Under the pieces are notes generated by a model. The model was not told the origin of the DNA. It searched no databases and was given only the letters and a program-made list of their open reading frames with translations. Position numbers and translations under genes: made by a program. From the IMG/VR virus record IMGVR_UViG_2698536312_000010: 8,860 nucleotides of DNA; one strand, given 5' to 3'. Shown here piece after piece: positions 158 through 8,860 of this stretch (position 1 is the stretch's first letter; the number at the start of each line of letters is the position of its first letter). The stretch is from a virus. Lineage: Duplodnaviria; Heunggongvirae; Uroviricota; Caudoviricetes.

Positions 158-411
158 ACAACCAGACAATGACTTTTACCCCTGAACAATTGCGTAAACA
201 CGCGCAGGAAATGCTGCGTCATGCTGAACAACTCGAAAAAACGGGCATAACAAAAGACGCTATCCGTAAAGATATGGTACCCGCGCTTCGGGAACTGATG
301 CAGGCGAAGCATCGCGCACAGAAAGCAGTAGATGAGCTGGTGGACTGTGTGGCAGAGCTGGAAACCAGAGTCGGAAAGTTTGAAAAACTGGTGCAGGAGG
401 TGCTGCGCTGA
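154..411 (+). CDS. Small hypothetical phage protein (85 aa) immediately upstream of rusA
   Basis: ORF in the six-frame track. TTG start at 154 is preceded by GGAG at 142-145 at 8 nt spacing; an internal ATG at 169 has no Shine-Dalgarno. Stop TGA 409-411 overlaps the rusA ATG at 411. Protein is charged and probably helical; no recognisable motif. Confidence 0.55.
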   Translation: MNNQTMTFTPEQLRKHAQEMLRHAEQLEKTGITKDAIRKDMVPALRELMQAKHRAQKAVDELVDCVAELETRVGKFEKLVQEVLR

Positions 412-785
412 TGCGCCATGAGTTTATTTTACCTTATCCGCCGACGGTGAATACTTACTGGCGACGTCGTGACAACACATATTTTGTATCAAAAGCCGGT
501 GAGCGTTATCGCCGGGATGTGGCGCTTATTGTCCGTCAGCAGCGACTGAAATTAAGCCTGTCCGGAAGACTGGCGATAAAGATTATTGCAGAGCCACCGG
601 ATAAGCGCCGTCGTGACCTGGACAATATCCTGAAAGCACCACTGGATGCACTGACACATGCGGGAGTGTTAATGGACGATGAGCAGTTTGATGAAATCAA
701 TATCGTTCGTGGTCAGCCAGTATCTGGTGGACGTCTGGGGGTGAAGATTTACCCCATAATGCATGAAGAGCAGGTCAAAAAATGA
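411..785 (+). CDS. rusA: RusA-family Holliday junction resolvase (crossover junction endodeoxyribonuclease)
   Basis: 124-aa product with the RusA-type RRRDLDN motif and overall resemblance to E. coli prophage RusA as I recall it. Size and position in the nin region just upstream of Q are typical. Stop overlaps the Q start (ATGA at 782-785). Confidence 0.9.
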   Translation: MRHEFILPYPPTVNTYWRRRDNTYFVSKAGERYRRDVALIVRQQRLKLSLSGRLAIKIIAEPPDKRRRDLDNILKAPLDALTHAGVLMDDEQFDEINIVRGQPVSGGRLGVKIYPIMHEEQVKK

Positions 786-2369: not shown

Positions 2370-3428
2370 ATGCTTAATACTGTAAAAATATCCAGTTGTG
2401 AGTTAATCAACGCCGACTGCCTGGAATTTATCCGGTCGTTACCCGAAAATTCTGTTGACCTGATAGTCACGGACCCGCCGTACTTTAAAGTGAAGCCTGA
2501 GGGCTGGGATAACCAGTGGAAGGGCGACGATGATTACCTGAAGTGGCTGGACCAGTGTCTGGCGCAGTTCTGGCGGGTGCTGAAACCTGCCGGAAGTCTT
2601 TACCTGTTCTGTGGTCATCGCCTGGCATCTGATATCGAAATCATGATGCGTGAACGCTTCAGTGTGCTGAACCATATTATCTGGGCGAAGCCGTCCGGAC
2701 GCTGGAACGGATGCAACAAGGAAAGCCTGCGGGCGTATTTCCCCGCCACAGAGCGCATTCTGTTCGCGGAACATTATCAGGGGCCGTATCGTCCGAAAGA
2801 TGCCGGGTATGCGGCGAAGGGCAGTGCACTGAAACAGCATGTGATGGCCCCGCTGATTTCTTACTTTCGTGATGCGCGAGCTGCCCTGGGGATAACGGCA
2901 AAACAGATTGCAGATGCCACAGGAAAGAAAAACATGGTGTCGCACTGGTTCAGTGCCGGTCAGTGGCAGTTGCCGAATGAAAGCGATTATCTGAAATTAC
3001 AGGCGCTGTTTGCCCGGGTGGCAGAAGAGAAGCATCGGCGTGGTGAACTGGAAAAGCTCCACCACCAGCTGGTGGATACGTATACCTCACTGAACCGGCA
3101 GTATGCGGAGCTGCTGAGTGAATATAAACATCTGCGGCGGTATTTTGGCGTGACGGTGCAGGTGCCGTATACCGATGTGTGGACGCATAAACCGGTGCAG
3201 TTCTATCCCGGGAAACATCCGTGCGAAAAACCGGCAGAAATGCTGCAGCAGATAATCAGCGCTAGCAGTCGTCCGGGTGACCTGATTGCAGATTTTTTCA
3301 TGGGGTTGGGTTCGACAGTGAAAGCGGCACTGGCGCTCGGGCGTCGTGCAATTGGCGTTGAGCTGGAGACTGAACGTTTTGAGCAGACGGTTCGGGAAGT
3401 ACAGGATTTAGTCAGCCAGAACGGATGA
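2370..3428 (+). CDS. Beta-class DNA methyltransferase (N6-adenine or N4-cytosine), orphan
   Basis: 352 aa with DPPY (motif IV) near the N-terminus in VTDPPYF and an FxGxG AdoMet-binding motif (DFFMGLGST) near the C-terminus; this order is diagnostic of beta-class amino-methyltransferases. No restriction-enzyme partner in the window. Confidence 0.9.
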   Translation: MLNTVKISSCELINADCLEFIRSLPENSVDLIVTDPPYFKVKPEGWDNQWKGDDDYLKWLDQCLAQFWRVLKPAGSLYLFCGHRLASDIEIMMRERFSVLNHIIWAKPSGRWNGCNKESLRAYFPATERILFAEHYQGPYRPKDAGYAAKGSALKQHVMAPLISYFRDARAALGITAKQIADATGKKNMVSHWFSAGQWQLPNESDYLKLQALFARVAEEKHRRGELEKLHHQLVDTYTSLNRQYAELLSEYKHLRRYFGVTVQVPYTDVWTHKPVQFYPGKHPCEKPAEMLQQIISASSRPGDLIADFFMGLGSTVKAALALGRRAIGVELETERFEQTVREVQDLVSQNG

Positions 3429-3468
3429 TATTGAAGAATTAATTACGCGTCGTTATTATGCGGCTCCC

Positions 3469-3544
3469 GGCCCTTTAGCTCAGTGGTGAGAGCGAGCGAC
3501 TCATAATCGCCAGGTCGCTGGTTCAAATCCAGCAAGGGCCACCA
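3469..3544 (+). tRNA. ileZ: tRNA with CAU anticodon, Ile2 (lysidine) type; encoded 3' CCA present
   Basis: Manual cloverleaf: acceptor GGCCCTT/AAGGGCC, D-stem GCTC/GAGC, anticodon loop CTCATAA (CAT at 3502-3504), T-arm GCTGG-TTCAAAT-CCAGC, discriminator A, CCA at 3542-3544. Close to E. coli tRNA-Ile2 as I recall it. The symbol follows Stx-phage nomenclature and is not verified by search. Confidence 0.88.
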
Positions 3545-3644
3545 TCACAAACCGCCATTAGCTTATCAGGAAGAGCAGACGACACGATAACAGGGTTGTT
3601 GGTGCGGGGGCGGGTCCCCGATGGCGGTCCATTATCGGTATTCA

Positions 3645-3721
3645 GCGTTGTTAGCTCAGCCGGACAGAGCAATTGCCTTCTAAGCAATCGGTCACTGGTT
3701 CGAATCCAGTACAGCGCGCCA
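3645..3721 (+). tRNA. argO: tRNA-Arg (anticodon UCU, reads AGA/AGG); encoded 3' CCA present
   Basis: Manual cloverleaf: acceptor GCGTTGT/ACAGCGC with one G-U pair, D-stem GCTC/GAGC, anticodon stem ATTGC/GCAAT, loop CTTCTAA (TCT at 3679-3681), T-arm ACTGG-TTCGAAT-CCAGT, CCA at 3719-3721. The symbol is a guess from 933W-type naming (argN/argO). Confidence 0.88.
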
Positions 3722-3831
3722 TATTCATTCTTCCAGATTCCTTCCGGCAGAGCCTTATACTGAAATATACCTGGCTCAGGATATTGTTGAAAATATTTTA
3801 TGTTTGTCAAAAATAAAAGTTCTGTTAAGTA

Positions 3832-4185
3832 TTGATTGAGTGTTTGTTATACGGTCTAATGGTTTTTTCAGCATTAAATATTTATCATTCATATGGTGTG
3901 GGTAGAGTGAATATTGATGAGGCGTCGGGGTGTTTCATCCTTAGGCAGCGTATTGATATAGTCAATGCAGCACGAGCAAAGGCCTTCAGCCGTTTGACAG
4001 TTTTGTTCTGTACTCCTGATCGTCTTTCGGGAAGAGACGTTATTATTCTGAATAGTGATGCTATACAGAGGGTTTGCGATGAGTTCATGGTTGCTAATTC
4101 AGAATTATTTGCTCTTGTTCAGGAGTACAACAGAATAGCCAGGACCTGTGGTATGGATGAACTTCGGATTACTCATCTGGGGTAG
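3832..4185 (+). CDS. Hypothetical ORF (117 aa from TTG; 108 aa from first ATG at 3859) immediately after the tRNAs
   Basis: Open frame only; no convincing Shine-Dalgarno for either start and no recognisable motif. An antisense ORF (3885-4088) overlaps it. Position corresponds to where stxA begins in Stx phages, but the product does not resemble StxA. Confidence 0.3.
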   Translation: MIECLLYGLMVFSALNIYHSYGVGRVNIDEASGCFILRQRIDIVNAARAKAFSRLTVLFCTPDRLSGRDVIILNSDAIQRVCDEFMVANSELFALVQEYNRIARTCGMDELRITHLG

Positions 4186-4389
4186 ATACATATCTGGATT
4201 ATCACCTGTTACGGTAAAAAGTGATTGCTTACTGTTTTTGTGAATGGCATTGCAGCAGCCGGATAATGTCAGTGCTGGCTGACGGTGTGCTGGTGGCGGG
4301 TGTGGTGGTTGTTGCTTTCCCGTTGCTGAAAAAGAAAACGCCAGACTGTTAGCCGGGTATCAGTTAGCGGGAGAAATTTTTAAATACTT

Positions 4390-4611
4390 CACAATTCAGG
4401 CGGTTGACTGTTGTCTGGTTTGCGGGGAGTTTGTTAAAAGAAACTGGCATGGTGAATCCCCCTGTGCGGAGGGGCAATCAGCGAGTAGGTATATGGGATA
4501 ATCGCGGATTCAGGTGCTGGTACTGAATTCACCGGGAGGCACCCGGCACCATGCAATGGCACATAGCGCCACTCTCCAGCCCCTCTCCGGAGGGGCTGTT
4601 TATATTGATTT
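4390..4611 (+). repeat. Repeat family copy 1: candidate small-RNA gene with 5' hairpin and intrinsic terminator
   Basis: The stretch from GTTTGTTAAAAG (4429) to the terminator is near-identical to copy 2 and shares conserved blocks with copy 3. 5' hairpin CCCCT-GTGCGG-AGGGG at 4458-4473. Terminator stem AGCCCCTC (4577-4584), loop TCCG, stem GAGGGGCT (4589-4596), then GTTTATATTGATTTT. Confidence 0.8.
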
Positions 4612-4632
4612 TGTCAGATGTGAGTAAACTCC

Positions 4633-4968
4633 TTATGGACTTTGTTGTTTTAGTCCATAAGGACATATTTGCAGAGTGCAACGGTTATTAAAGCATTCAT
4701 TCAATACGTTATCTGTATTTGTAGGGCATTCCTGGCTGTTTTTGATTAAATTCCAGAATGTTTTATTGAATGGTACTACGTTGTAAATGGTTACAGGTAG
4801 CACTTTGTTATTGAGCATGATGCCTGTGTGAGTCAGTGTAAATATACTTTCAGGAGGTAAGAAAGCATCCGATTGATACCAGATTATTAATTTTATTTTA
4901 CTCCATATGACTGAAAAAGATATTCCGCATGATGGCTGGATAACTGTATCAATCACAATCCACTTCAT
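4633..4968 (-). CDS. Hypothetical cysteine-rich protein (111 aa) in AT-rich DNA, opposite strand to the phage late genes
   Basis: Only long ORF in this interval. Good Shine-Dalgarno on the minus strand (AAGGA, 6-nt spacer, ATG at 4968-4966). AT-rich upstream region with a TATACT -10-like hexamer (plus coordinates 5009-5014). C-terminal cluster of four cysteines ([26 protein letters not shown]). A 10-bp perfect stem-loop (4631-4662) spans the stop codon. No family recognised. Confidence 0.45.
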
Positions 4969-5236
4969 TTAGTTTCCTTGTTTATGCCTTGCTGGTGATG
5001 TTCTGAAAAGTATAAATGATATTTTTGAATGTAAACCATAGAGCAGAATTATTTTTCTGATGTTGTTTATTGTTTATTTAAATGCAGGGTGGTTTATATC
5101 TCGTCTTGTAGTTTATCCATGCATATCTGCTTGATAATCAGGTTTTTATTTAAGGTATGGTTTTGTGTTTTTTCTGTATTACATGTCAGGTATTTTAAAG
5201 AATTATTTTTCAGATGGTGGAAAGAACCATGGCATT

Positions 5237-5248
5237 TNNNNNNNNNNN
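5237..5248. other. Scaffold gap (12 N) immediately 5' of repeat copy 2
   Basis: Literal N-run; the sequence after it begins exactly at a conserved repeat block. Confidence 1.
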
Positions 5249-5421
5249 GTTTGTTAAAAGAAACTGGCATGGTGAATCCCCCTGTGCGGAGGGGCAATCA
5301 GCGAGTAGGTATATGGGATAATCGCGGATTCAGGTGCTGGTACTGAATTCACCGGGAGGCACCCGGCATCATGCAATGGCACATAGCGCCACTCTCCAGC
5401 CCTCTCCGGAGGGGCTTTTCT
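5249..5421 (+). repeat. Repeat family copy 2 (5' end hidden by the gap); near-identical to copy 1
   Basis: 5249-5415 matches 4429-4596 with two differences (caccatg to catcatg, and one C missing in the terminator stem). Sequence downstream of the terminator is unrelated to that after copy 1. Confidence 0.8.
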
Positions 5422-5475
5422 GTGCCGGATACATCACAGTTTCTGGAACCTTAGGTACTACAGTATCAGTCAGGG

Positions 5476-5484
5476 TGCTATATT
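5476..5484 (+). promoter_or_regulatory. Candidate extended -10 promoter (TGcTATATT) for a short independent transcript ending at the 5610-5637 terminator
   Basis: TG at 5476-5477 and TATATT at 5479-5484; no clear -35. The terminator lies about 120-150 nt downstream. Confidence 0.35.
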
Positions 5485-5609
5485 TTCAGATGTGATGAAA
5501 GCCTGTCAGCAGGCAGGGCGTATCGGAAATGACCCAGTAGAGAAAACGTTGACTCAGATACCGGTGCTGAGTTACCGGGAAACCGGCATCACATGACCGC
5601 TATCCTTCC

Positions 5610-5637
5610 AGGCCCATCCGCTCCGGTGGGCCTTTTT
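5610..5637 (+). terminator. Intrinsic terminator (GC-rich hairpin plus T5)
   Basis: Stem GGCCCA (5611-5616), loop TCCGCTCCGG, stem TGGGCC (5627-5632), then TTTTT (5633-5637). Confidence 0.5.
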
Positions 5638-5676
5638 ACTGCAGAAAACAGGTTCCCCGTTAAATGCTATGTTGCT

Positions 5677-5908
5677 CACAATTCAGTAAGTTGACAGTTG
5701 CCTGTCAGACTGGGCATTTGTTAAAAAAATTTCGCATGGTGAATCCCCCTGAGCGGAGGGGCGACTGGTGACGGTATAATCTCTGATTATCAAAACGAGA
5801 ATGACGCGGGTTTAGTGGCACCGGGCTGAACTCACCGGGAGGCACCCGGCACCATGTGCATGATGATACAGATACGCGGCTTTAGCCCCTCTCCGGAGGG
5901 GTTTTCTT
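5677..5908 (+). repeat. Repeat family copy 3: diverged copy with the same conserved ends and a different core
   Basis: Shares CACAATTCAG, GTTGAC-GTTG-CTG, TTTGTTAAAA, GCATGGTGAATCCCCCTG-GCGGAGGGGC, TCACCGGGAGGCACCCGGCACCATG and the terminator hairpin (CCCCTC-TCCG-GAGGGG, 5886-5901, then TTTTCTT) with copy 1. The intervening core sequences are unrelated. Confidence 0.75.
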
Positions 5909-5913
5909 GTGGG

Positions 5914-5943
5914 CAAAAAAAGCCCGCGCTGGGAGACGCGGGC
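5914..5943 (-). terminator. Possible minus-strand intrinsic terminator facing the N gap
   Basis: Hairpin GCCCGCG-CTGGGAGA-CGCGGGC (5922-5943) preceded on the plus strand by A7 (5914-5920), which is a U-run on the minus-strand transcript. Confidence 0.35.
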
Positions 5944-5973
5944 GGCAAGGAATAAACAATAAAACGTGAAGTA

Positions 5974-6164
5974 NNNNNNNNNNNNNNNNNNNNNNNNNNN
6001 NNNNNNNNNNNNNNNNNNNNNNNNNNNNNNNNNNNNNNNNNNNNNNNNNNNNNNNNNNNNNNNNNNNNNNNNNNNNNNNNNNNNNNNNNNNNNNNNNNNN
6101 NNNNNNNNNNNNNNNNNNNNNNNNNNNNNNNNNNNNNNNNNNNNNNNNNNNNNNNNNNNNNNNN
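5974..6164. other. Scaffold gap (191 N) immediately upstream of the nanS-p start
   Basis: Literal N-run. Six-frame ORFs crossing it are artefacts. Confidence 1.
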
Positions 6165-6182
6165 TCCCGGCCGGGAGGATTC

Positions 6183-8036
6183 ATGGCATTTAAACACTAT
6201 GACGTGGTCAGGGCGGCATCGCCGTCAGACCTTGCGAAACGACTGACACAAAAACTGAAGGAGGGCTGGCAGCCGTTTGGTAGTCCGGTGGCCATAACCC
6301 CTTATACCCTGATGCAGGCGATTGCAGCAGAAGGTGATGTGGTCGTCAGTGGTGCAACTGAGCCGGAGTGGTACTACGTCATCGTACTGGCCGGGCAATC
6401 CAATGCCATGGCTTACGGTGAAGGTCTTCCGCTTCCGGATTCATACGATGCGCCCCATCCGCGCATTAAGCAACTGGCCCGTCGTAACACAGTGACTCCC
6501 GGTGGTGAAGTATGCGTATTTAACGACATCATTCCTGCTGACCATTGTCTGCATGATGTTCAGGATATGAGTACGATTAACCATCCCCGGGCTGACCTGA
6601 GCAAAGGGCAGTACGGCTGTGTCGGACAGGGCTTACATATTGCCAAAAAACTGCTTCCGTATATCCCTAATAATGCGGGGATCCTGCTGGTACCATGCTG
6701 TCGTGGTGGTTCGGCATTCACCCAGGGCACGGAGGGGACATTCAGCGAGTCCACGGGGGCCAGTCAGGATTCGGCTCGCTGGGGAGTGGGTAAGCCGTTA
6801 TATCAGGATCTGCTTTTCCGCACGAAGGCAGCATTGCAGAAAAACCCGAAAAACGTTTTGCTGGCGATATGCTGGATGCAGGGGGAATTCGATATGACGA
6901 ATGCCAGTTACGCCCAGCAGCCAGCAGCATTTCTTGCAATGGTACAGCAGTTCCGTGCTGACCTTGCCGGGCTGGCGGCGCAGTGTCACGGTGGAAGTCC
7001 GGCATCAGTCCCCTGGATTTGTGGCGACACGACATACGCGTGGAAACAAGAACACGGTACGCAATATGAAGTGGTATATGGTGCATATAAAGGTAAAGAA
7101 TCCCAGCAGATTTATTTTGTTCCCTTTATGACCGATGGTAGCGGAGTTAATACACCGACAAACAACCCGTCAGAAGATCCTGATATTGCCGGGTCTGGTT
7201 ATTACGGTTCGGCATCCCGAACGAACAAAAACTGGGTATCATCAAATCGCCCGACGCATTTCAGCTCATGGGCGCGTCGTGGCATTATTCCCGATCGTAT
7301 GGCAACTGCTATTCTGAACGTAGCCGGTCGCACCTTAGCCTTCATTAGTGGTAAGGCACCGGAAATCAAACCCTCGCCCGGCGGCGACACGCCATCGGGG
7401 CCGTCTGAAGATGCATCCATACGCACAATCTCCCTGTTGCCGACAGCCGGAGACGCTGCTGCGCAGGGCTGGAGCATTAAGAATGGCGGAGTTCAGTTGT
7501 CAGATGGTGTATTTAAGATCACCAAGCAGAGCAATAAAGCCTGGTCCCTGACGCGCCCGGTGGATGACGCAGTCTCCCTGCTGACACGGGGTGGCAGACT
7601 GAGCTGTAAGTTTCGACTGTCAGGCGCACTGACCACCAACCAGTTCGGTCTGGGAATTTATCTGTATACCGATGTAGCGTTACCTGACGTCGTGGCGATG
7701 ACCGGGACTGGTAACCCGTTCCTGATGTCGTTCTTCACCCAGACCACAGACGGCAAACTGAATCTGATGCATCACAAGAAAGCAGGAAACACAAAGTTGG
7801 GCGAGTTCGGGAATTACAGTAACGACTGGCTGACGCTGGAGCTGGTGTTCACCGCCGGCAGTGCCACGGTTACTCCGAAACTGAATGGAGTGGCTGGCCC
7901 GGCATTCCAGGTCATAAAAGACAGTCTGACACTGGGGCTGAATGCGCTGACGCTGACGGATATTACCAAAAATGCAGCGTATGGCGTTGAGATAGAAAGT
8001 CTGGTGCTGGAGATAAATGCACCGGCATCATCATAA
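6183..8036 (+). CDS. nanS-p: Prophage sialate O-acetylesterase, NanS-p type (DUF1737 N-terminus plus SASA/SGNH esterase domain)
   Basis: 617 aa. The N-terminus MAFKHYDVVRAASPSDLAKRLTQKLKEGWQPFGSP matches the DUF1737-type start and VLAGQSNAMAYG carries the GQSN catalytic-serine motif of SASA esterases, both from memory. GGGAGGA sits upstream of the ATG. Position between the toxin-cargo slot and holin S is the canonical one in 933W-like phages. In-frame upstream sequence is open into the gap, so the true start could lie within it. Confidence 0.88.
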   Translation: MAFKHYDVVRAASPSDLAKRLTQKLKEGWQPFGSPVAITPYTLMQAIAAEGDVVVSGATEPEWYYVIVLAGQSNAMAYGEGLPLPDSYDAPHPRIKQLARRNTVTPGGEVCVFNDIIPADHCLHDVQDMSTINHPRADLSKGQYGCVGQGLHIAKKLLPYIPNNAGILLVPCCRGGSAFTQGTEGTFSESTGASQDSARWGVGKPLYQDLLFRTKAALQKNPKNVLLAICWMQGEFDMTNASYAQQPAAFLAMVQQFRADLAGLAAQCHGGSPASVPWICGDTTYAWKQEHGTQYEVVYGAYKGKESQQIYFVPFMTDGSGVNTPTNNPSEDPDIAGSGYYGSASRTNKNWVSSNRPTHFSSWARRGIIPDRMATAILNVAGRTLAFISGKAPEIKPSPGGDTPSGPSEDASIRTISLLPTAGDAAAQGWSIKNGGVQLSDGVFKITKQSNKAWSLTRPVDDAVSLLTRGGRLSCKFRLSGALTTNQFGLGIYLYTDVALPDVVAMTGTGNPFLMSFFTQTTDGKLNLMHHKKAGNTKLGEFGNYSNDWLTLELVFTAGSATVTPKLNGVAGPAFQVIKDSLTLGLNALTLTDITKNAAYGVEIESLVLEINAPASS

Positions 8037-8121
8037 AAAGTGAGCCAGCCAAATGGAAGGTATCGTTAAACTCACCGGTAGTGTCAGTGGGTCGTCTGAG
8101 ATGCCTGCATGAGTTATCAGA

Positions 8122-8151
8122 GCCATCAGTACTTAACTGGTGGCTTTTTTT
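8122..8151 (+). terminator. Intrinsic terminator between nanS-p and the holin gene
   Basis: Stem GCCATCAG (8122-8129), loop TACTTAA, stem CTGGTGGC (8137-8144) with one G-U pair, then T7 (8145-8151). Confidence 0.5.
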
Positions 8152-8186
8152 ATTGTTGTCAGCTTCCGGATAACGGGAGACGGGGT

Positions 8187-8402
8187 ATGTACCAGATGGA
8201 AAAAATCACAACAGGTGTGTCATACACCACGTCAGCGGTGGGAACGGGCTACTGGTTCCTGCAGTTGCTGGACAGGGTTTCCCCGTCTCAGTGGGCGGCA
8301 ATAGGCGTGCTGGGGAGTCTGCTGTTTGGGCTGCTGACATATCTGACTAACCTGTATTTCAAAATCAGAGAGGACCGTCGTAAGGCTGCACGGGGAGAGT
8401 AA
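8187..8402 (+). CDS. S: Class II holin (pinholin), phage 21 S21-like, with dual-start motif
   Basis: Product [71 protein letters not shown] resembles S21 as I recall it. Two Met codons (8187 and 8196) give the Met1/Met4 antiholin/holin arrangement. GGGAGA lies 6 nt upstream. The six-frame ORF starting at 8109 is an upstream extension that runs through the terminator. Confidence 0.85.
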
Positions 8403-8406
8403 TTCA

Positions 8407-8721
8407 ATGACTCAAAACTATGAACTGATTGTGAAAGGGATCCGCAATTTTGAGAATAAAGTTACGGTAACTTTAGCGTTACGGGACAAAAAACGCTTTG
8501 ACGGTGAAATTTTTGACCTGGACATCTCGCTGGACCGTGTTGAAGGTGCCGCGCTGGAGTTTTATGAGGCAGCAGCCAGAAGGAGCATCAGACAGGTCTT
8601 CCTGGATGTTGCTGCCGGGTTATGTGAAGGGGACGAGCTGTTGCCAGAAACGCGCCCCTGTTCAGAGGCGCGGTATACCATAAAAATTAACAGTTCTGAT
8701 AACTCGATTACGGGTTGTTAG
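8407..8721 (+). CDS. Small hypothetical protein (104 aa) inserted between holin and endolysin; YdfR-like by position and size
   Basis: GGAG 9 nt upstream of ATG 8407. A roughly 103-aa ORF of unknown function sits between the holin and lysozyme genes in Qin-type cassettes (ydfR), from memory; sequence identity is not verified. Confidence 0.55.
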   Translation: MTQNYELIVKGIRNFENKVTVTLALRDKKRFDGEIFDLDISLDRVEGAALEFYEAAARRSIRQVFLDVAAGLCEGDELLPETRPCSEARYTIKINSSDNSITGC

Positions 8722-8776
8722 CTTTTTGCAGTTGGCTTTCCAGTATCTTTCATTGGTAGCATCCTGATAAATATCC

Positions 8777-8860
8777 ATGAGCGCAAAAATCAAATACGGC
8801 CTGTCAGCTGCTGTTCTGGCGCTGATTGCAAAATGGCATCTGAATCGATCGCAGTTTGGC
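8777..8860 (+). CDS. R: Start of the probable endolysin gene (partial; runs off the window end)
   Basis: MSAKIKYGLSAAVLALI resembles the N-terminus of E. coli prophage lysozymes (M-AKI-YGLSAAVLAL) as I recall it. Only 28 codons are visible, there is no clear Shine-Dalgarno, and the sequence after LALI departs from what I remember. Confidence 0.4.
   Translation, partial: MSAKIKYGLSAAVLALIAKWHLNRSQFG

Follow-up and report, generated by a model that had tools for sequence, protein, structure and literature searches.

STnc100 (RF02076) is a catalogued family of small RNAs that has been reported from prophages. PasD, a structural homologue of STnc100, is encoded directly upstream of a sialate esterase gene, and a BLAST search with PasD does not recover STnc100 (bioRxiv 10.64898/2026.05.13.724894). 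In EPEC E2348/69, the stability of PasD1 and PasD2 depends on Hfq, and RIL-seq identified targets of these RNAs (PMC8550237). A Northern blot of EDL933 revealed STnc100_4 (PMC5331693), EcOnc27/sRNA103 of E. coli O157:H7 is bound by Hfq and overlaps an STnc100 copy downstream of stx2B (PMC12711010), and STnc100 has been detected in outer-membrane vesicles (PMC12370729). PasD1/PasD2 and EcOnc27/sRNA103 are Hfq-dependent trans-acting sRNAs (PMC8550237, PMC12711010). The prophage anti-sRNAs AgvB and AsxR (RF02702/RF02703), likewise associated with Hfq, are encoded in the same niche close to the lysis genes of the lambdoid late region, but they belong to Rfam families different from STnc100; neither was detected at E up to 1 in the DNA analysed here.

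This DNA is a stretch of 8,860 nucleotides of a Caudoviricetes virus (IMG/VR record IMGVR_UViG_2698536312_000010; the window), the whole of which is the late region of a lambdoid prophage (Table 1). It contains three repeats, which follow the tRNAs and precede nanS-p on the strand of the late genes, and in which an initial annotation had singled out a 22-base block ending in ATG as resembling the nanS-p translation-initiation region. A cmscan search against Rfam 15 (206-position model, curated gathering score of 47 bits) showed that the repeats are full-length copies of RF02076, 'Gammaproteobacterial sRNA STnc100'. The full model was matched each time with E-values from 1e-26 to 5e-37, which is far beyond chance. 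The element is thus already known; it is a rediscovery of a catalogued prophage sRNA family and needs no follow-up as a new element. The block itself very likely forms the 3′ half of the core that is conserved in prophage small RNAs of the STnc100/PasD family.

Table 1. Features of the window. Positions count from its first nucleotide.
Feature	Position	Strand	Basis or remark
RusA	411-785		Pfam
Antiterminator Q, two pieces	ends at 1797		Pfam
DNA methylase	2370-3428		Pfam
Two tRNAs	3469-3544, 3645-3721		tRNA scan
DUF3927 gene	4221-4352		Pfam
STnc100 copy 1	4418-4607	+	cmscan 132.4 bits, E = 9.7e-30
Copy 1, closing helix, 5′ strand GCAUGGUG	4447-4454	+	pairs with 4547-4554; Rfam consensus, MFE fold
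Copy 1, candidate pseudoknot	4475-4488 with ~4514-4520		
Copy 1, hairpin CCGGG-AGGCA-CCCGG, holds Shine-Dalgarno-like GGGAGG	4532-4546	+	Rfam, MFE fold
Copy 1, closing helix, 3′ strand CACCAUGC	4547-4554 (flagged ATG 4551-4553)	+	Rfam, MFE fold, covariation
Copy 1, intrinsic terminator, 9-bp stem then T-run	4577-4606 (hairpin 4577-4598)	+	terminator scan, Rfam alignment
iraM-like gene	4633-4968	-	RefSeq name in near-identical locus L001
Start of second nanS-p paralogue, ATGGCATTT, 'A'-type leader, stops at contig end	5229-5237	+	repeat family D9
STnc100 copy 2	5249-5427 (match 5238-5427, 5′ end cut by 11-N join)	+	cmscan 120.0 bits
Copy 2, closing helix strands	5267-5274, 5367-5374		
Copy 2, hairpin	5352-5366		
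Copy 2, ATG	5371-5373		
Copy 2, terminator	5398-5416		
Decayed STnc100-like copy	5466-5639	+	cmscan 30.1 bits, E = 0.0015
STnc100 copy 3	5705-5914	+	cmscan 161.0 bits, E = 4.6e-37; MFE fold
Copy 3, closing helix strands	5733-5741, 5850-5858		
Copy 3, candidate pseudoknot	5762-5775 with ~5817-5824		
Copy 3, hairpin	5835-5849		
Copy 3, ATG	5854-5856		
Copy 3, terminator	5884-5903		
191-N scaffold gap	5974-6164		real sequence of 145 nt without STnc100 similarity
nanS-p leader, 'B' type	6165-6185	+	Shine-Dalgarno GGGAGG 6173-6178, 4-nt spacer, ATG 6183; outside the sRNA family
nanS-p (DUF1737, SASA sialate O-acetylesterase, DUF6645)	6183-8036	+	Pfam
P21-type holin, then DUF1327	8187-8402 (holin)		Pfam

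The window copies match the closing helix, both conserved hairpins and the terminator of STnc100, and their prophage setting is that reported for the family. There is no essential difference; the deviations are a G-U pair and a 1-nt deletion in copy 2 and a fourth copy that reaches 30 bits. With the scaffold gap filled, ~270 nt separate the model end of copy 3 from nanS-p downstream of it; pasD has been reported from this position, and in related loci copies in this position form a distance class of 225-226 nt between the end of the nhmmer match and the nanS-p ATG. The likeness to PasD is one of position, immediately upstream of the esterase gene, this being the only property compared, and copy 3 is no more than a possible PasD allele. 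EcOnc27/sRNA103 occupies an equivalent late-region slot between Q/tRNA/cargo genes and nanS-p (PMC12711010). The cargo there is a toxin, whereas the window has no stx genes and carries DUF3927 and iraM-like genes or nothing in their place.

Copies 1 and 2 are 99% identical over 154 nt. As had been described, they differ by a 1-nt indel (CCCC at 4581-4584 versus CCC at 5400-5402), and the codons following the ATG of copy 3 are unrelated. The indel lies in the 5′ arm of the terminator stem, which is shortened by the deletion in copy 2. The statement that every repeat reads CCGGGAGGCACCCGGCACC-ATG holds for copies 1 (4532-4553) and 3 (5835-5856), but not for copy 2 (5352-5373), which reads CCGGGAGGCACCCGGCATC-ATG; its single C>T change produces a G-U pair in the closing helix. 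The block of copy 1 is present as described, but the coordinates given for it, 4531-4552, were one base off and should read 4532-4553. The decayed copy, which lies between copies 2 and 3 and also shows up in the repeat families D3 and D5, stays below the gathering score and thus does not qualify for RF02076. Its hairpin now reads CCGG-GAAA-CCGG, followed by CAUCACAUG, and its own terminator is kept (5610-5633). Weak nhmmer matches are found at the position of this copy in the loci L002 and L003. In L125, a 1262-nt insertion (704-1965), possibly an insertion sequence, splits the decayed copy at about window position 5602-5606; outside this insertion L125 is 100% identical to the window.

The arrangement of the copies has to be read with the make-up of the scaffold in mind. 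The N-runs at 1097-1100 and 5238-5248 are joins of contigs that do not belong together. Both flanks of the 4-N join are 92%-identical copies of one 190-nt Q segment. The 11-N join is preceded by the first 9 nt of a second nanS-p paralogue, a sequence which in L001 continues as a complete esterase gene; the STnc100 copy after the join lacks the first 11 positions of the model. Positions 3429-5237 show the same order as L001 (tRNAs, DUF3927, one STnc100 copy, iraM and nanS-p) and are colinear with it, and positions 5249-5973 and 6165-8860 are 100% identical to L129, in which copy 2 directly follows the tRNAs. The window is probably a chimeric scaffold stitched from two related prophages, and the three-copy tandem would hence be partly a product of assembly. 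Most likely, the real arrays consist of one copy in one prophage and of two copies plus the decayed one in the other.

For the 191-N gap, the initial annotation had raised the possibility of a fourth copy of the repeat directly in front of nanS-p. In three IMG/VR loci (L124, L125 and L129), the sequences adjoining the gap on either side match the window at 100% identity and enclose 145 nt. The complete genome of E. coli H3 (L003) also matches both flanks, the 145 nt corresponding to L003 2856-3000. In all four loci this stretch is located between ...GTGAAGTA and TCCCGG.... It is unrelated to the repeats, as nhmmer at maximum sensitivity gave no STnc100 match in the 145 nt, and hence no fourth full copy is hidden in the gap.

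Some further features of the late region were recorded. RefSeq names nanS-p 'SASA family carbohydrate esterase'. At window 3545-3644 the middle tRNA is degenerate, and two tRNAs were detected; related prophages have three (Ile, Arg, Arg). The intergenic region between nanS-p and the holin gene (8037-8186), the slot to which Zhu et al. assigned the sRNAs PasA/PasC, closes with a strong 12-bp intrinsic terminator on the plus strand (8119-8147) and gave no Rfam match at E up to 1.

For a detailed characterization of the fold, family members were collected by scanning one genome per species with the pattern AATCCCCCNNNGCGGNGGGG, followed by confirmation with nhmmer. The pattern is loose and produced many chance matches outside Enterobacterales; only nhmmer-confirmed loci were kept. 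By this approach, 41 family loci from other genera were found, among them loci of Kosakonia, Pantoea, Superficieibacter, Enterobacter, Klebsiella, Raoultella, Salmonella, Citrobacter, Cedecea, Leclercia, Trabulsiella, Atlantibacter, Pluralibacter, Silvania and also Escherichia ruysiae. All 18 loci submitted to Rfam were assigned to STnc100 at or above the gathering score. Tandem arrays of three to five STnc100 copies occur in other genera as well (L103 894-2010 on the Pantoea sp. plasmid pAPP145_2, L100, L095, L076 and L064). In L103, copy L103a (1875-1992) is followed ~25 nt later by L103b (1748-1872), with no terminator between them.

Covariation was analysed in a MAFFT alignment of 51 distinct cores from ~15 enterobacterial genera. 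In the Rfam consensus, the 3′ strand CACCAUGC of the 8-bp closing helix pairs with GCAUGGUG ~100 nt upstream. All eight pairs of this helix showed compensatory changes on both sides, and 91% of the cells pair across the 51 sequences. For the CCGGG/CCCGG stem, 100% of the cells pair and two pairs are compensated (U-A and A-U variants). The observed pairing values were reached by none of 500 shuffles, and in a control with slid partner columns only 44-54% of the cells paired, the value for the closing helix being about 47%. The loop AGGCA is invariant in all 51 sequences. An unbiased mutual-information scan ranked the pair involving the A of the ATG (columns 8-142) first and the pair involving the T third. 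MFE folds of copies 1 and 3, which do not depend on an alignment, gave the same closing helix and hairpin as Rfam. Hairpin 2 was left out of the covariation counts, because the MAFFT alignment of the variable region is unreliable; by per-sequence folds it is present in nearly all members. The hairpins AAUCCCCC...GGGG and CCGGG-AGGCA-CCCGG are both found in all three window copies, and their loops and stems are invariant or compensated throughout the family. Each of the three copies also has the terminator of the family, a terminator-like hairpin followed by a T-run. The flagged block consists of a hairpin and the 3′ strand of the closing helix and is conserved structural RNA. The RF02076 matches and the covarying helix and hairpin bear out the part of the initial annotation that saw in the block an RNA-level signal, although it mentioned neither that the repeats form a catalogued family nor that the ATG pairs with a CAU ~100 nt upstream.

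Other identities of the hairpins were also considered. CsrA sites present the loop motif ANGGA in GGA hairpins; this identity was set aside, because the GGA of hairpin 1 varies within the family (A in 26 of 51 sequences) and the AGGCA of hairpin 3 does not fit ANGGA. For any likeness to a tRNA T-arm, the twister ribozyme or put RNA, no Rfam match was obtained.

The flagged ATG belongs to one strand of an RNA helix, in which it is complementary to the CAU upstream; as the initial annotation had rightly supposed, it is not a start codon. At its position ATG is found in only 4 of the 51 sequences, all of them from Escherichia; the other members have ACA, GCA, ACG, ATA and other triplets, each matching its own 5′ strand. 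The ATG is kept in all 16 distinct 3′ halves from E. coli and phage loci because the 5′ CAU is fixed in that lineage. An alternative is that the block is a genuine translation-initiation region, belonging to a small protein, a dual-function RNA or a leader peptide. All three copies do have the Shine-Dalgarno-like GGGAGG followed by ATG, and in copy 1 an ORF of 46 codons starts there. The peptides encoded by the 16 variants, however, are unrelated (among them MQWHIAPL, MCMMIQIR, MLYTEIRH, MLCRKSVV and MQEKECAC), the second codon of the E. ruysiae variant is a stop (M-stop), and the frames of copies 1 and 2 are shifted against one another. In the three window copies the 23 codons from the ATG run past the terminator without a stop, so that a terminated transcript would be a non-stop mRNA. 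The GGGAGG is made up of the 3′ part of the 5′ arm of the hairpin and its loop; it is held in a stable structure 11 nt from the ATG, and neither a conserved start and frame nor an accessible Shine-Dalgarno sequence at 5-9 nt was found. Ribosome profiling of EDL933 gave footprint-to-transcript ratios of 1.5-3.2 for 4 of 11 STnc100 copies, which would be in line with translation, but of 0-0.65 for the other seven; that study did not resolve multi-mapping among near-identical copies or protection by other proteins (PMC5331693). The ratios above 1 mean that some copies may associate with ribosomes. Translation from the repeat ATG is thus unlikely, and we regard the block as a true initiation region for any of these products as very improbable.

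Closely connected is the idea of a common ancestry or function of the block and the nanS-p leader, with the repeats as relics of duplicated nanS-p 5′ ends or with one regulatory signal carried by both. The leader indeed reads TCCCGGCCGGGAGGATTC-ATG at 6165-6185 as quoted, and the 8-mer CCGGGAGG followed by ATG occurs both there (6171-6185) and in the repeats. This 8-mer is all they have in common. Its chance expectation is 0.17 occurrences per window, which makes one extra CCGGGAGG unremarkable, and a GGAGG is to be expected ahead of any well-translated gene. Local alignment of the 70-nt leader with copies 1 and 3 returned the 8-mer alone, and 78-103 of 500 shuffles (16-21%) scored as well. 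The 'same CCGGG/GGGAGG/ATG arrangement' that had been seen in the leader was not confirmed: GGGAGG and ATG are separated by 11 nt in the repeats versus 4 nt in the leader, and the arms follow as CCGGG-loop-CCCGG in the repeats versus CCCGG directly succeeded by CCGGG, with no loop, in the leader. The fold of the leader is no more stable than that of shuffled sequences (-5.7 kcal/mol, z = +0.95), and when the 175 nt preceding nanS-p were searched with nhmmer at maximum sensitivity (--max, E up to 100), no similarity to STnc100 was detected. Leaders were also compared among 77 IMG/VR loci with an intact nanS-p start. A leader ending in ...GGTGGAAAGAACC-ATG, without the 8-mer, is present in 44 of them; ~29 are of the CCGGGAGG type, four read ...ACACGGGAGAAATTCG-ATG and one is of another kind, giving at least four types. 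In 74 of the 77 loci nanS-p does have an STnc100 copy upstream of it and in the same orientation, as shared ancestry might lead one to expect, but fusion of this copy to the gene was never seen; the nhmmer match ends 162-227, 624 or >700 nt before the ATG. In all 41 family loci of other genera, moreover, no nanS-p homologue was found within 8 kb, and the block is invariant there. The combination of homology and co-occurrence with nanS-p that would mark a nanS-p leader was not found. The block has no detectable homology to the nanS-p initiation region, the likeness being no better than chance. Common ancestry or function is largely refuted and, to our mind, extremely improbable; the proposed relics of nanS-p 5′ ends are contradicted by the leaders without the 8-mer as well as by the loci without the gene.

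The sRNA core to which the block is assigned is organized as follows. Each copy folds into a multi-branched core closed by a helix of 8-9 bp, with GCAUGGUG as the 5′ and CACCAUGC as the 3′ strand. This helix encloses a CCCC/GGGG hairpin, which is separated by a variable segment from a second hairpin, and then the invariant CCGGG-AGGCA-CCCGG; it is followed by ~25-30 variable nucleotides and an intrinsic terminator. Judging from consensus matches, each copy probably has its own sigma-70 promoter with the -10 element just upstream of the closing helix, in which case the 5′ end of the RNA would be locked into this helix. A probable role of the folded core is that of a stable scaffold, and the variable stretch together with the U-tail of the terminator would be the part that binds Hfq and pairs with targets. 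A simple stabilizing role leaves the strong conservation of the core, with its invariant loops, unexplained.

In 48 members from many genera, -10-like hexamers (TAnAAT, often preceded by TG) cluster 5-15 nt upstream of the helix, which suggests one promoter per copy and a transcript starting at the helix. A sigma-70 scan revealed no convincing promoter directly upstream of the window copies, and the best -35/-10 combination of the E. coli copies is ambiguous. An 18-nt motif, TTCAG-N4-TTGAC(A/T)GTT, which includes a -35-like hexamer, precedes copies 1 (4395-4412) and 3 (5682-5699). It is also present at 3985-4002, inside a 117-codon ORF with no Pfam match, and is followed there by a terminator-like hairpin (4021-4039).

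The copies could instead act mainly in cis on the phage late transcript, as terminator cassettes or as signals for processing or stability, in the interval from the Q-dependent late promoter to nanS-p plus the lysis genes. Their location is compatible with this, as all of them lie on the late-gene strand between Q/tRNAs and nanS-p/holin. Q-modified polymerase reads through intrinsic terminators, and would thus pass the one at the end of each copy; some copies of the Pantoea plasmid array succeed each other with no terminator at all. The -10-like elements directly upstream of each core in many genera speak against such a role, and few of the 41 loci from other genera have a detectable homologue of the window's Q, holin or RusA within 8 kb. 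Furthermore, members of the family are discrete Hfq-dependent RNAs in uninduced lysogens (PMC8550237, PMC5331693). We consider a mainly cis-acting function improbable; it would in any case be compatible with action of the small RNA in trans.

The core of this small RNA may contain an additional interaction. The loop of hairpin 2 can pair with a complementary stretch of about 14 nt that follows hairpin 1; in copy 1 this would involve CAGC around 4478-4481 and GCUG around 4514-4517. The same positions can pair in 50 family members from L005-L122, the pairing sequences differing between genera (e.g. CCAG/CUGG, AAGCCACA/UGUGGCUU, UUAACC/GGUUAA and ACUGGAUA/UAUCCAGU). The mean duplex energy was -9.2 kcal/mol with a member's own sequence versus -6.1 kcal/mol with mismatched partners, and none of 5000 permutations was as good. 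With 37 dissimilar representatives, which corrects only partly for relatedness, this was the case for 0 of 10,000 permutations. These data suggest a covarying pseudoknot in the STnc100 core, which we regard as a lead. It is absent from the Rfam consensus and is not mentioned in the 2026 preprint on the Pas sRNAs (bioRxiv 10.64898/2026.05.13.724894). The loops AGGCA and, in the first hairpin, UNNGCGG are invariant across ~15 genera. It is conceivable, if doubtful, that the core is a dedicated platform, whose exposed GGGAGG would act as a Shine-Dalgarno mimic for the 30S subunit or as a protein site and whose variable arms would be exchangeable guides. If true, such a binding platform could explain the ribosome footprints in EDL933 without any translation.

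For work on these prophages, the likely chimeric scaffold is a warning against reading STnc100 copy number or tandem layout from this window. The RefSeq records of the closest genomes lack these RNAs; in place of one copy they show a spurious pseudo-CDS on the minus strand, annotated as a partial pseudogene ('hypothetical protein') opposite the unannotated sRNA (L002 5009-5134 and L003 2138-2263). In ribosome profiling, the ATG together with GGGAGG may mislead ORF callers and readers of the data. Finally, the wide distribution of the family, the promoter signal of each copy and the candidate pseudoknot may be of help to those studying STnc100.
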